A stretch of DNA of 30,687 bases from Myxococcota bacterium (GTDB taxonomy: Bacteria; Myxococcota_A; UBA9160; PR03): assembly GCA_041611735.1 (NCBI GenBank), contig JBFIML010000046.1, positions 1-30,687 on the forward strand, in the 5' to 3' direction. The position numbers and the translations under genes are program-made. The notes under the pieces were generated by a model, which ran no database searches, had not been told where the DNA came from, and saw only the letters and a program-made list of their open reading frames with translations. Shown here piece by piece: positions 5,263 through 9,008 of the stretch (the first letter of the stretch is position 1; the number at the start of each line of letters is the position of its first letter).

Positions 5263-5838
5263 TCAGCCGGCCAGCCGCTCGTCGTCGCCGCCGGGGCGCG
5301 CCAAGGCGGCGCAGCCATCGCAGACCCGGTACTCGAGCCGGGGCAGGCGAGTGGAATCGAACAGGTCGAGCCGCGCCACGGCGGCTTCCGCCTCGAGCCA
5401 CTCGGCGCCCGCGACGAGGATGCGCCGGCAGAAGCTGCACATGGGCAGACTGCGTTCGGAACGCGGAAAGGCCCGGTCCAGGATCGAGAAGAAGGGGCGC
5501 GTCTGCTCGCGCACCAGCGTCGCCCGGCACTCCATGCGGCCGGCCGCGGAGGGCTGGATGGCGAGCTCCATGAAGCGGAAGCGGTCGGGCGAGTCGCAGC
5601 GGAAGGGGACCACGACGGGGCGCTCCATGCGGCGCACCCGTTCGAAGATCGCCTCGTAGACCCGGCGGGTCTCGTCTCCGGCCACGAATGCCCAGAGCGG
5701 ATGGCCGAGCACGCGCTCGCGCGTGAGCTCCGGGGCTCCATTCCCGCGCGCGAAATCGAGCCAGCTCTCGCTCACGAAGGAGATGCAGTCGGCGGCATCC
5801 AGTTCGTAGACGGACGCGGGCACGGATGTCTCGGCCAT
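5263..5838 (-). CDS. Stand-alone PAS-like protein with C-terminal CxxC...CxxC (putative Zn) module
   Basis: VYELDAADCISFVSESW and RERVLGHPLWAFV are PAS-like. The C-terminus has LPMCSFCRRI and RVCDGC. Confidence 0.7.
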   Translation of the reverse strand: MAETSVPASVYELDAADCISFVSESWLDFARGNGAPELTRERVLGHPLWAFVAGDETRRVYEAIFERVRRMERPVVVPFRCDSPDRFRFMELAIQPSAAGRMECRATLVREQTRPFFSILDRAFPRSERSLPMCSFCRRILVAGAEWLEAEAAVARLDLFDSTRLPRLEYRVCDGCAALARPGGDDERLAG

Positions 5839-6052
5839 GGCTTCGACCTGTGCAGAGCGTAGCGGCCGGCGGGCGGCGGCGTGCCGAGCGCCCCGGGGGT
5901 TCGGGCGGCCGGGGGGGCAGGGGCCGGACCCCCATGAATCTCCCCGCGAGGCCCGGGGTCGAAGCAGACTGGCGGGTCCGGGGCTGTTGGGTCCCGGCGC
6001 CCCACACCGGATCTCCGGTGGGGGGGTGGATTGGCCAGGGGGAGGGCGCGCC

Positions 6053-7195
6053 ATGACCAGCTCCCGCGACGATTCGGGGGTCGCCTACCCGGAGATCCTG
6101 ACGCTCCACTGGGAGGGACCCGCCTCGGCGGTGGATCCTCCGGAGCCCCGCTTCCGGGGCTCGCAGGCGGAGGAGAGAGAGCAGCAGGAGGCGCTGCGCA
6201 GGCGGGAGCTGATCGAGATCCAGCGCACCCGGCAGGGGTGCGCGCTCTGGGAGCAGATCGAACGCGAGGCCGCGCGCAAGGGCGACGCGGAGCTGTGGCG
6301 CCGCAAGCTCTCCGCCTACTGGTGGGTGAAGGTCAAGCTGGAGGGCAACGCCGCGGACTACGCGCGGCGCTTCGGCGTGAATCACGCCACGGTGCGGACC
6401 TGGATCAGCGAGGTGGCGAAGCTCGCCTACCAGGTGGGCTACCGGCTCCACGAGGACCGGCTGCTGCTGGTGGGTGAGGCGCCGGCGGGGCTCGCGCGCC
6501 TGCGCGAGCTCGTGAACCGGGACGCGGCCTCGCCGGAGGCGTGGCGGGAGCTGCGGGCCGTGGAGCGCGAGTTCCGCGGCGAGGAGCCCTACTTCCACCT
6601 GAACGAGGGTCACGTGCTGCGCGCCCGGGGCCTGCTGCGGGAGTCGGACGAGACCCTGAAGGAGGGGCTCGCCATCGCCGAGGCACCACGCGTGCGCTCC
6701 CTGCTCTGGAACGCGCGCGGCCAGACCCTGTGGGACTGCTCTCCCGACTCGGGTTGCTGGGTCGCCGACCACCTGGAGCGCGCCGAGAAGGCGTTCCGGC
6801 GCGCCGTCATCCTGGACCAGTCCACCTACTTCCCCTACGTCAATCTGGCCCAGCGCGCGGTGGATGCGGGGGATCTACGGCGTGCGGAGTACTGGCTCGG
6901 TGAGCTGGCGACGGCGCGCAAGAACATGGAGGAGGCCATGAAGGACGATCTCGCCCGCTACCTGCACCAGGCCGAGTGGACCGGCGCCGTGGAGGGCAAG
7001 CGCTTCTGGCGCAGCGGTCCGCGGCGCTGGCTGCGGGAGGCCACCCGCAAGGGCTTGCTCGCCCTCTTCGCGCTCGTGTTCGGGCTCGGGCTGCCGGCGC
7101 CCCCCGCCCACGCCGACGCCTCCGACGCGGCCGCCATCGAGCGGGTCGCCCACGACGGCGAGAAGGCCCGCAACAGCGGGGCGGGAGGGAACTGA
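6053..7195 (+). CDS. HTH + TPR protein with C-terminal signal-peptide-like segment and short tail
   Basis: GGAGG RBS then ATG 6053; 380 aa. HTH is AADYARRFGVNHATVRTWISE (aa ~100-120). Three TPR-like repeats span aa ~179-292. The C-terminus is TRK-GLLALFALVFGLGL-PAPP-AHA plus 26 aa. Confidence 0.75.
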   Translation: MTSSRDDSGVAYPEILTLHWEGPASAVDPPEPRFRGSQAEEREQQEALRRRELIEIQRTRQGCALWEQIEREAARKGDAELWRRKLSAYWWVKVKLEGNAADYARRFGVNHATVRTWISEVAKLAYQVGYRLHEDRLLLVGEAPAGLARLRELVNRDAASPEAWRELRAVEREFRGEEPYFHLNEGHVLRARGLLRESDETLKEGLAIAEAPRVRSLLWNARGQTLWDCSPDSGCWVADHLERAEKAFRRAVILDQSTYFPYVNLAQRAVDAGDLRRAEYWLGELATARKNMEEAMKDDLARYLHQAEWTGAVEGKRFWRSGPRRWLREATRKGLLALFALVFGLGLPAPPAHADASDAAAIERVAHDGEKARNSGAGGN

Positions 7196-7201
7196 GCCGC
7201 G

Positions 7202-7837
7202 CTAGCCGGGCTTCACGAAGTTGAGGGTGAAGGCCCAGGGGGGGCCGAGGCGCTGCTCGGGGACGAAGCCCGCCGCCTGCGCGAGTCGCAGCACCCGGGA
7301 CGCTTGCTGGTAGTGCGGATCGGGCAGCACCTCGGTCACGGAGAGGAGACCGCCGGGCTTGAGCGCCGCGTGAATCTCCCGAAGCGCCGCGTCCTGGTCC
7401 GGGATCTCGCCGAGCACCGTGACCAGGAACGCGCGGTCGAAGACGCCGCGCTCGACCCGACCCTCTCCAGCACCCCCCAGGAGGGTCCGCACGTTGCGGC
7501 ATCCGCTGCGGGTGATGCGTTCCTCGAGGCGGCGGATCATGCCCGGCTGGATGTCGAGGGCAACCACCTCGCCGCAGGGCCCGACCCGCTCGGCGGCCGG
7601 TAGCGTCAGGCGTCCGGGCCCGCAGCCCACGTCGAGGACGCGCATGCCGGGCCCCACCCGGGCCCGCTCGAGCAGCTTGGCGCTGCCGGCCAGGGCCTCC
7701 ACGTAGGGATTCTCGAGCAGGGGCGCGAGCCAGGGCGGACAGGGGAGGGAGCGCCGGCGCGAGAGCGCTCGCCATGCGAAGCCCACCGCCAGGACTGCGA
7801 GCACCAGGCCCGCGAGGACCGCCGCGACGCGGCTCAT
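7202..7837 (-). CDS. Class I SAM-dependent methyltransferase with N-terminal membrane anchor
   Basis: VLDVGCGPG (motif I), VVALDIQ and LKPGGLL. The N-terminus is hydrophobic and a GGGAG RBS precedes ATG 7837. Confidence 0.9.
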   Translation of the reverse strand: MSRVAAVLAGLVLAVLAVGFAWRALSRRRSLPCPPWLAPLLENPYVEALAGSAKLLERARVGPGMRVLDVGCGPGRLTLPAAERVGPCGEVVALDIQPGMIRRLEERITRSGCRNVRTLLGGAGEGRVERGVFDRAFLVTVLGEIPDQDAALREIHAALKPGGLLSVTEVLPDPHYQQASRVLRLAQAAGFVPEQRLGPPWAFTLNFVKPG

Positions 7838-7862
7838 GGCGGCTCCCGGAGCACGCGGGTCC

Positions 7863-9008
7863 TCAGGCCGGTGACCCGGCGAAGAACTTCTCCACCGCAT
7901 CCCGCTGGGCCCGCACGTCGTCGCGCCCCAGCTCCATCAGCCGTCCGCAGAACTGCGTGTCGAAGAGCAGGTAGCTCGCCAGCTCGGTGATCGACTCGTC
8001 CGTGCCGAGGCCGCGCATCAGGTAGCGGACGATGGCCGGTATGCGATGGCGCAGCTCCGCCGCGATCGAGCCGAAGTCGCGCGAGGGGCTGAGCCAGAGC
8101 ACGTCGACCCAGCGGAAGGGATTGGCGGGGTCCCCGGTGGGGCAGGTGAGCACGCTCCGGTTGACCCGCTCGCTGTGCTCGACATCGGTCTCGATGGCGT
8201 CGAGCATCACCGCGTCCAGCAGCACGCCCGCGATCTGGGCGACCGTCGGCGGCGGCCGGCCGGAGACGCCCGGCAGCTCAACGGCGCGGCCGGCTTGCCG
8301 GACCCCGACTGCCACGACGCGGTCGGCGCCGAGGTTGATGGCGGGGCTGAGCGGAGCCGTGTTGCGGATGCAGCCGTCGCCCAGGTGACGCCCTTGGATC
8401 TCGACGGAAGGGAACAGGATCGGAATCGCGCTGGAGGCCATCAGGTGGTCCACACCGATCGGCGTGCGCTCCACGCTCCAGCGGCCGCGTTGCCACAGCG
8501 GCACGTCCGGCCCGGCTTGCACGAAGACGACCCCATCGGAGGTGTAGAGGTTCGTGGCGGGCACGGCGAGCGCCCGGAGCGCACCGCTTCGCAGGTGCCC
8601 GGCGATGCGGTCGAAGGGAACGCCCTCGTCCAGCAGGGTGCGCAGGGGCGCGGTGTCGAGCAGCGCCTTGGGCGCCACGCGGCGCAGCATGCCCCCGAAG
8701 GAGAGGTCCCGCACCCAGCGCCACCCGATGCCGCCCAGCGAGCGCAGATCGGTGCGGAACACCTGTTCGGCCCGGATCCCGCCCCAGATCCCCTCCAGCC
8801 GCTCCACCCCCTCCGCAAGACGGTCGGCGTGGGCCGCCAGCACGGCGGCGTTGATGGAGCCGGCGCTGGACCCCACCAGGACGTCGAAGGCGCTGGCGGC
8901 CCCGGGAAGGATCCCGAGGTCCAGCAGGCCGCGCAGGGCGCCCACCTGGTAGGCGCCGCGCGCCCCGCCCCCGGACAGCACCAGCGCCGTGCGCGGAGCG
9001 CCACTCAC
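7863..9008 (-). CDS. Patatin-like phospholipase
   Basis: LVLSGGGARGAYQ, GSSAG nucleophile elbow, ASSAIP and LGDGC (DGx). The GTG start overlaps the upstream TGA (GTGA). Confidence 0.92.
   Translation of the reverse strand: MSGAPRTALVLSGGGARGAYQVGALRGLLDLGILPGAASAFDVLVGSSAGSINAAVLAAHADRLAEGVERLEGIWGGIRAEQVFRTDLRSLGGIGWRWVRDLSFGGMLRRVAPKALLDTAPLRTLLDEGVPFDRIAGHLRSGALRALAVPATNLYTSDGVVFVQAGPDVPLWQRGRWSVERTPIGVDHLMASSAIPILFPSVEIQGRHLGDGCIRNTAPLSPAINLGADRVVAVGVRQAGRAVELPGVSGRPPPTVAQIAGVLLDAVMLDAIETDVEHSERVNRSVLTCPTGDPANPFRWVDVLWLSPSRDFGSIAAELRHRIPAIVRYLMRGLGTDESITELASYLLFDTQFCGRLMELGRDDVRAQRDAVEKFFAGSPA

Follow-up and report, generated by a model that had tools for sequence, protein, structure and literature searches.

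A Myxococcota regulator family that may carry its own exported peptide ligand behind a C-terminal signal-peptide-like segment

Introduction

RRNPP receptors carry an XRE-type helix-turn-helix (HTH), and the mature peptides that they read derive from the extreme C-terminus of the precursor. As set out in PMC10075063, RRNPP systems are defined by five criteria, and their signature combines a propeptide gene of 10-100 amino acids (aa) directly adjacent to the receptor gene, Sec export, and a receptor of 250-500 aa with tetratricopeptide repeats (TPRs). In that source, peptide signalling read by a cytoplasmic TPR domain is attributed to Firmicutes and their phages and is always laid out as a receptor gene with a neighbouring propeptide gene, and the words "fused" and "fusion" occur 0 times. 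Here, we analyse a 380-aa protein encoded by a single open reading frame (ORF) on a 30.7-kb contig of a Myxococcota metagenome-assembled genome (MAG); the whole of this stretch of DNA is referred to as the window. The protein joins an HTH and a TPR domain to a signal-peptide-like segment and a short C-terminal tail, and it had originally been predicted to be an RRNPP-like receptor fused to its own signal peptide and propeptide. The fusion half of this prediction is partly borne out, by the invariant end, the signal layout and the predicted groove fit described below, whereas RRNPP membership is not (see Discussion). We tentatively propose, at somewhat less than even chances, that one polypeptide here comprises both a regulator of transcription and the exported peptide that serves as its ligand.

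Results

A regulator and an invariant C-terminal peptide share one reading frame

The window has ~73% G+C and is the entire contig C46 of the source genome, a Myxococcota MAG of 4.09 Mb in 118 contigs with an estimated completeness of 95%. The regulator gene (Table 1) is single-copy within this genome, and its frame has a G+C content at third codon positions (GC3) of 0.91. All of the elements on which the original prediction had been built, namely the ORF, the HTH with the sequence AADYARRFGVNHATVRTWISE at aa 100-120, residues N184, N220 and N264, the signal-like segment and the tail, are found where it had placed them.

Table 1. Positions of the regulator gene, its protein features and the flanking genes in the window
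Feature	Residues (aa)	Position (nt)	Strand	Remarks
Whole ORF (P0001)	1-380	6053..7195	+	380 aa plus stop; homologues have the same N-terminus and length
N-terminal motif PE(I/V)xTLHWEGP	13-23	6089..6121	+	H19, W20, G22 and P23 invariant in 37 sequences
Four-helix sigma-70-region-4-like HTH domain (model)	60-142	6230..6478	+	HTH helices aa 100-107 and 111-134
TPR domain, ~4.5 canonical repeats (model)	143-307	6479..6973	+	pLDDT 84-95 over most of the domain
Juxtamembrane motif WxxGPxxW	319-326	7007..7030	+	W319, G322, P323 and W326 invariant
Signal-peptide-like segment	331-354	7043..7114	+	Basic n-region TRK (331-333); h-region GLLALFALVFGLGL (334-347); c-region PAPPAHA, i.e. PAPP (348-351) and AHA (352-354), with A-H-A site
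Predicted extracytoplasmic tail, 26 residues	355-380	7115..7192	+	Variable spacer and invariant end
Terminal octapeptide RNSGAGGN	373-380	7169..7192	+	Predicted TPR-groove ligand
Stop codon right after Asn380		7193..7195	+	TGA in 9, TAG in 4 and TAA in 1 of 14 loci
Divergent ORF, ~190 aa		5263-5835	-	No Pfam family; two CxxC pairs near the C-terminus
Convergent methyltransferase gene		7202-7900	-	Stop 6 nt past the stop of the regulator gene

A word-indexed search retrieved 126 proteins at E<=1e-3, nearly all of ~380 aa and 56-73% identical, and the few named members come from Myxococcota MAGs. When 1.84 billion cluster representatives were searched exhaustively with HMMER, only 36 hits emerged: a single full-length cluster, some fragments and a few distant relatives. 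In a same-order sample of 150 other genomes, a strong match is present in 17, covering 14 of 65 genera including that of the source genome. The family is narrow and patchy in distribution. Neither Pfam nor NCBIfam gave anything significant with the target (TPR_2, E 0.16; PrsT, E 0.1), a profile search against the PDB was empty at E<=10 (0 hits), and Foldseek, run with the full model, listed only generic TPRs, none of them at E<=1e-3. Likewise, the ESM Atlas returned generic TPR clusters, with a top score of 0.90. The family is real and conserved and has an unusual architecture, and the regulator class that it represents is uncharacterised so far.

The C-terminus was compared in 121 proteins (the query and 120 listed hits of the 126), conservation in an alignment of 37 sequences, and codons at 14 distinct DNA loci. 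The protein ends exactly in GAGGN in 113 of the 121 and in GTGGN in one, the other seven being truncated or reading past the motif; G376, G378, G379 and N380 are invariant in the alignment. The spacer between the segment and this end is unconserved, varying in both sequence and length, so the contrast between kept terminal Gly/Asn-rich residues and a variable spacer, which the original prediction had proposed as a check, is seen throughout the family. Across the 14 loci, all Gly, Ala and Asn codons of GAGGN vary synonymously, and the identity of the following stop codon varies as well, which argues that selection acts on the peptide and not on a DNA motif. Because the stop always follows the Asn while its codon differs, the free carboxyl group on the Asn itself is conserved. 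A reading of the motif as a Shine-Dalgarno sequence (GGAGG) is rejected by the same synonymous variation and by the position of the next gene in relatives, >200 nt downstream. Among the matches listed from open-access papers and bioRxiv, no description of GAGGN as a bacterial C-terminal motif or peptide signal was found.

An artefact of this kind of fusion would be a lost stop codon, or a mis-assembly, that joined a regulator gene to a small gene for a secreted peptide. Two singleton gene calls of 70 aa, P0141 and P0143, on contigs of 2700 and 1788 nt, would fit it, as both start at the residue equivalent to V312; yet this position carries a start codon in just 9 of the 14 loci, and the uninterrupted frame is shared by >110 proteins of many samples and by all 14 loci. 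Independent assemblies concur at the junction. Specifically, a contig of a different study spans 6571-7400 with its sole difference at 7305, outside the ORF, a contig of a third study spans 7050-7320, and no indel is listed inside 7043-7195 in this comparison; no RNA holder is listed for the stretch. The regulator-tail junction is identical in these assemblies, which disposes of the assembly error that the original prediction had named as a possible refutation. Already contradicted by the junction and frame data, an artefactual fusion is next to impossible and is excluded for practical purposes.

A nested peptide gene with a conserved internal start is rejected by the same start-codon count (9 of 14 loci at V312). 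The propeptide is not found as a separate adjacent small gene, the tail being in frame in the 14 loci and in the 113 GAGGN-ending proteins, and no relative was seen to encode the peptide in a clearly separate gene, a point that the original prediction had proposed to check. P0141 and P0143, which come from other metagenomes and run from the V312 equivalent to GAGGN, could be fragments, produced by a contig edge or a frameshift, or else propeptide genes that in rare cases stand alone; when metagenomes were scanned with the 70-aa P0143, no relative turned up.

The terminal octapeptide is predicted to fit the groove of the TPR domain

The full-length AlphaFold2 (AF2) model, built from 37 sequences, has a mean predicted local distance difference test (pLDDT) of 71 and displays a poorly placed N-terminus, long helices, the HTH, a well-modelled TPR block and an unplaced tail. 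Within the TPR block, nine helices span residues 145-306 and correspond to ~4.5 TPRs, instead of the three TPR-like repeats that had been read from the sequence at the outset. The groove residues N184, H187, R190, N220, Q224, W227, F260 and N264 are invariant in the 37 sequences, and these include all three Asn residues to which attention had originally been drawn. The presence of Asn alone is not special, because consensus TPRs carry Asn at the same groove-lining position; the special feature is the invariance of the three Asn residues together with H187, R190, Q224, W227 and F260. In a VIA comparison, the TPR model scores Z 16.4 to the TPR domain of OGT and Z 14-16 to APC/C and designed consensus TPRs, and the structural neighbours listed include the TPR-peptide complexes of Hop/Sti1 and PEX5. 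The domain is thus modelled as a tandem-TPR superhelix that matches generic TPRs only. Downstream of it, the juxtamembrane motif WxxGPxxW is present in 120 of 121 family proteins, and distant relatives have it in a GPARW form.

The complex between the TPR domain (residues 140-330) and the tail (residues 350-380) was predicted with both partners supplied as alignments, in three runs and with three controls. The runs gave ipSAE scores of 0.73, 0.66 and 0.69 (reported as 0.69) and have at least 51% of contacts in common, compared with 0.02 for the best control. In the calibration of the tool, the mark was reached by 116 of 157 solved complexes and by 2 of 215 mismatched pairs, counts that apply only roughly here since our own alignment was used. 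Confident contacts of the tail are limited to residues 373-380, and on the TPR side they involve residues 151, 154-155, 180, 183-184, 187, 190, 217, 220-221, 224, 227-228, 258-260, 263-264, 267 and 303. The 21 contact residues have a mean column entropy of 0.25 versus 1.05 for the other 144 TPR residues, and 9 of the 21 are invariant versus 22 of the 144. Taken together, the last eight residues are predicted to fit the protein's own TPR groove on Asn184, Asn220 and Asn264, and in this prediction the invariant peptide occupies the best-conserved surface that the domain has. Modelling of the terminal peptide with the TPR domain, as the original prediction had suggested, places the octapeptide in the groove on the Asn ladder well apart from the controls.

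The segment before the tail has a signal-peptide layout and a predicted N-in/C-out topology

The signal-peptide-like segment sits 330 residues from the N-terminus, and what is conserved in it is hydrophobicity, not sequence. In 113 full sequences, the uncharged stretch has a median length of 22 residues (range 16-30) and is followed by a tail of 14-48 residues (median 26). The 15 residues before and after this stretch hold a median of 4 and 1 Lys plus Arg and of 1 and 3 Asp plus Glu, respectively, and the net charge before the segment exceeds that after it in 113 of 113 sequences, in line with the positive-inside rule. Because of this charge pattern, an N-in/C-out topology is predicted, in which the HTH-TPR part would be cytoplasmic and the tail of 14-48 residues would lie across the inner membrane. 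The strongly hydrophobic core, judged by eye, comprises ~12-17 residues and is followed by a Pro/Gly/Ser break and by small-x-small sites such as those in PPASA, HPASG and PPAHA. Of 119 sequences, 116 have a site of this type at a distance of 3-11 residues from the h-region, in favour of the conserved A-x-A site that the original prediction had proposed to test for, but shuffles of these Ala/Ser/Gly-rich residues reach 72%, which makes the enrichment a weak one. A twin-arginine signal is rejected: the window protein has RR before the segment, and this is not a family-wide feature. Searches for a C-terminal signal peptide, signal peptidase or tail-anchored protein in open-access papers and bioRxiv gave no comparable case among the matches listed.

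The predicted fit between groove and tail could also be explained without export, if in the cytoplasm, before membrane insertion or in place of it, the groove captures the C-terminus of its own chain or of a sister chain and thereby sets an auto-inhibited or oligomeric state, or a switch between soluble and membrane forms. Cytosolic TPR domains that read free C-termini are well known, as in PEX5-PTS1 and Hop-EEVD, which favours such self-binding, and both partners would be made in one compartment with no need for re-import. However, a very hydrophobic core of 14-17 residues would be left exposed in the cytosol, the AF2 single chain left the tail undocked, and the signal layout, the positive-inside pattern in 113 of 113 sequences and the peptidase-type motifs of distant relatives (see below) would be unexplained. 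We consider cytoplasmic self-binding distinctly improbable.

Export, cleavage and re-import would unite the features of the protein

On the proposal that the regulator encodes its own exported ligand, signal peptidase I would cut after the A-x-A/G site and free a peptide of ~20-40 residues into the periplasm, and the uncut signal segment would hold the regulator at the membrane. Either the whole peptide or a C-terminal fragment trimmed from it would be re-imported into the cell, where it would bind the TPR groove and alter the activity of the regulator. The output would then report peptide accumulation, that is, cell density, confinement, or leakage or uptake across the envelope. The genome carries one gene for a family-5 peptide-binding protein, and an import route therefore exists in principle. 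Export, cleavage and re-import is the only reading that uses the HTH, the invariant groove, the signal-like segment and the invariant free end.

Several points weigh against this proposal. Judging from the charge distribution, the TPR domain and the tail would lie on opposite sides of the membrane, so that both release and re-import would be required, and a peptide of 20-40 residues would not cross the outer membrane of a diderm cell unaided. By the counts given above, small-x-small sites are only weakly enriched over composition, and an uncharged stretch of 22 residues could equally be a stable membrane anchor. As for the groove, mutual information between tail and pocket is near zero, there being no covariation signal because tail and groove are both invariant. 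The AF2 monomer left the tail unplaced, with a pLDDT of 31-38; in the predicted complex, the fold of the partner itself is uncertain (pLDDT 44), and the score may partly express likeness to the many TPR-peptide complexes that have been solved. Additionally, the conserved N-terminal HWEGP motif could be a rival, cytoplasmic ligand for the groove, and the tight linkage of the family to an envelope operon (see below) also fits a plain envelope sensor.

In its most specific form, the proposal describes a one-polypeptide signalling circuit of diderm bacteria, in which the tail would be shed by signal peptidase, each receptor would yield one peptide, and the returning peptide with its GAGGN end would be read by the groove, the whole having arisen independently of the RRNPP systems of Firmicutes. 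We regard a circuit of this form as possible, if on the doubtful side.

Distant relatives carry peptidase-type motifs and repeated short motifs behind the segment

One relative, P0125 (36% identical), has a GAGGV end, carries Cys where the family has N184, and is without the HWEGP motif at its N-terminus; it is a single anecdote of joint change. Five others, P0144, P0146, P0148, P0155 and P0157, have the HTH, the TPRs, GPARW and the hydrophobic segment in common with the family but have long C-terminal regions. All five have a signal-peptidase-type motif right after the segment, which is A-Q-A in P0144 and a lipobox-like G-C in P0146, P0148, P0155 and P0157, with Asp after the Cys in three of these four. 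The C-terminal region holds two copies of KGEGWIQPR in P0144 and three copies of KD[DE]YI in each of the other four. More broadly, the acidic tail of this distant subfamily contains 2-3 copies of KD[DE]YI[RKH]P or KGEGWIQPR, and repeated short tail motifs resemble multi-copy peptide precursors. The peptidase-type motifs and repeats are compatible with a signal peptide that leads into a precursor bearing peptides, although they are no proof of it. On the reading as a one-polypeptide circuit, they would point to a wider class in which a cytoplasmic HTH-TPR part is fused in front of signal peptides and of peptide-bearing exported tails with KDDYI or KGEGWIQPR repeats.

These repeats bear also on another explanation, that the protein is the precursor of an exported peptide product, bacteriocin-like or modified, which acts on other cells or on the envelope and for which the HTH-TPR part is merely an intramolecular holder or chaperone. 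An invariant core with a strictly conserved final Asn after a variable spacer would suit a product of this type, as would the predicted fit of the groove, but the DNA-binding domain would be left without a role and no modifying enzyme or dedicated exporter is conserved beside the gene. Moreover, the tail is identical across species that are ~60% identical elsewhere, which is unusual for an antagonistic peptide. A peptide product of this sort is very improbable.

Most relatives adjoin an uncharacterised envelope operon

In most relatives, a conserved, uncharacterised operon lies directly downstream on the same strand, for example at L010:7353-12085, and it is present also in L001, L002, L004, L007-L009, L013, L014, L018, L031-L033, L036 and others. 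Its genes encode a small lipoprotein-like protein (d0), a secreted coiled-coil protein of ~280 aa (d1), a small secreted protein (d2), a weakly ExbD-like protein (d3) and a membrane protein with a Pro-rich linker (d4); an SLT lytic transglycosylase comes next, followed in some loci only by a beta-lactamase-family protein. Among loci with at least ~600 nt of downstream DNA (a threshold judged from coordinates, with duplicates kept in the counts), the operon is downstream in 11 of 12 genome loci and in 13 of 16 metagenome loci. Of the 17 gene-bearing genomes in the order sample, 16 also carry d1, and seven genomes have d1 without the gene. One of these seven has a P0144-type distant relative divergent next to the operon; the distant subfamily also comprises the locus L032:3086-4276 (-).

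The link between the regulator class and the operon is strong, and in most relatives the adjacent operon is the likeliest target. The source genome of the window is an exception to this linkage: tblastn with operon genes d0-d4 gave no hit in it at E<=1e-3, and a genome search for d1 was likewise negative. Three further loci, L011, L042 and L058, are without the operon downstream, and they and the window keep GAGGN. Since the motif is intact without the operon, a partner encoded by the operon is unlikely to be the sole reader of the tail.

The principal alternative is a single-pass, tail-anchored regulator that stays uncleaved, whose hydrophobic segment is a permanent anchor, whose GAGGN end docks onto a periplasmic partner or protease, such as a PDZ-type reader of C-termini or an operon product, and whose groove binds something else, for example HWEGP or another protein. 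The linkage figures given above, direct downstream position and co-occurrence with d1, agree with it, as do the secreted and membrane nature of the operon products, the ExbD-like protein and the SLT lytic transglycosylase among them, and the presence of a distant relative beside the operon in divergent orientation. It also draws on the weak A-x-A enrichment, on an uncharged stretch whose median of 22 residues suffices to span a membrane, and on the long extracytoplasmic regions that distant relatives have in place of the short tail. On the other hand, it is weakened by a controlled prediction that puts the tail in the protein's own groove (0.69 vs 0.02) and by the conservation of this groove, which exceeds that of any other TPR surface, and the tail is unaltered where the operon was not found. 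In addition, signal-peptidase-type motifs recur past the segment even in distant relatives. An uncleaved anchor is possible but, in our estimate, rather unlikely.

The HTH domain has a sigma-region-4-like fold

Modelled alone, residues 60-142 reach a pLDDT of 86.4. The top rows of a VIA comparison are almost all sigma region 4 domains (SigL, CnrH, SigD4, SigW, SigR r4, SigE r4, SigH and others), with Z 7.3-8.4, a root-mean-square deviation of 1.7-3.2 Å and 62-72 residues aligned; the absolute scores are modest for a small domain, and the argument for sigma region 4 lies in the uniformity of the match list. Foldseek listed proteins of these kinds too, though none below E 0.33, and distant relatives give sub-threshold hits to Pfam Sigma70_r4_2 (E 8.3e-4 and 2.3e-3). 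The model therefore assigns the HTH a sigma-region-4-like fold. A sigma factor identity is rejected, as this is a region-4-like fold only: neither Pfam nor NCBIfam gave sigma region 2 or another sigma hit at E<=10, and because no sigma region 2 is detectable, the protein cannot be a sigma factor as such.

Upstream of the HTH, the N-terminal motif PE(I/V)xTLHWEGP lies in a poorly modelled region (pLDDT 40-53). Its role might be that of a docking site or of a further ligand for the TPR groove, one located in the cytoplasm.

The genes around the regulator in the window are not conserved beside it

The 217-nt region at 5836-6052, between the divergent ORF and the regulator gene, is a candidate operator region. 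On the other side, the 6-nt gap between the convergent stops (7196-7201) leaves no space for a terminator hairpin. PhyH and ChaN-like genes lie further upstream, and patatin, GFA and MazG genes are also present in the window. In 18 loci from genomes and 28 from metagenomes, the gene is flanked by no counterpart of any of these neighbours.

Discussion

If the proposal of a regulator with its own exported ligand is true, the fused form found in Myxococcota carries the logic of TPR-peptide signalling into diderm bacteria and offers a new way of fixing the stoichiometry of sender to receiver. It would also be one of few examples in nature in which a signal peptide comes after a cytoplasmic domain, here of 330 residues. 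Pipelines that seek adjacent small genes would by design miss such a form. Should the tail instead be an uncleaved anchor, the family would still represent a regulator class that is uncharacterised, as is the envelope operon to which it is linked.

Like the RRNPP systems (Rap-Phr, NprR-NprX, PlcR-PapR, PrgX, AimR-AimP), in which a cytoplasmic TPR receptor of 250-500 aa carries an HTH, the protein described here combines these domains within 380 aa, and its ligand would be encoded with a Sec-type signal and would have its active part at the extreme C-terminus of the precursor. Unlike them, receptor and propeptide form one polypeptide instead of two adjacent genes, the HTH is modelled as a sigma-region-4 fold and not as an XRE-type domain, and the TPRs, which are short, canonical and 34 residues long, match only generic TPRs. 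The gene resides in a diderm Myxococcota MAG and not in a Firmicute or its phage, and the receptor would be held at the membrane by its uncut signal segment. It is on these grounds, the HTH fold, the generic TPR matches, the Myxococcota host and the single gene, that the RRNPP-like label of the original prediction is set aside. No RRNPP receptor was among the matches listed by Foldseek and VIA, no RRNPP family was hit in Pfam or NCBIfam, and the PDB profile search was empty; open-access papers and bioRxiv gave no description of a receptor-propeptide fusion, or of RRNPP systems in Myxococcota or Gram-negative bacteria, among the matches listed. The system would work as an RRNPP circuit yet fails the defining two-gene layout, and homology to its receptors was undetected among the matches listed.

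The groove also has parallels among TPR domains that read a free C-terminal peptide. In the TPR domains of PEX5, Hop/Sti1 and OGT, groove Asn residues contact an extended peptide, and the present protein resembles PEX5-PTS1, Hop/Sti1-EEVD and OGT in its canonical TPR superhelix, its groove Asn residues and a predicted ligand that is a free C-terminal end. Those proteins, however, are eukaryotic cytosolic adaptors for the tails of other proteins, whereas here the tail is the protein's own and is predicted to lie across the membrane.

Extracytoplasmic function (ECF) sigma factors with a TPR extension are exemplified by group ECF42. The union of a sigma-region-4-like four-helix HTH with TPRs recalls these factors and other sigma-4 or LuxR-type regulators with TPR extensions; unlike them, the present protein has no detected sigma region 2, and it adds a C-terminal membrane segment and a tail that is predicted to be exported.

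Finally, ToxR/CadC and RseA-type proteins are membrane-tethered one-component regulators and anti-sigma factors. The predicted N-in/C-out topology, with a cytoplasmic regulatory domain that could be released by intramembrane proteolysis, is like theirs. Unlike theirs, the extracytoplasmic part here comprises 14-48 residues without a folded domain, and its end is predicted to fit the protein's own cytoplasmic domain.

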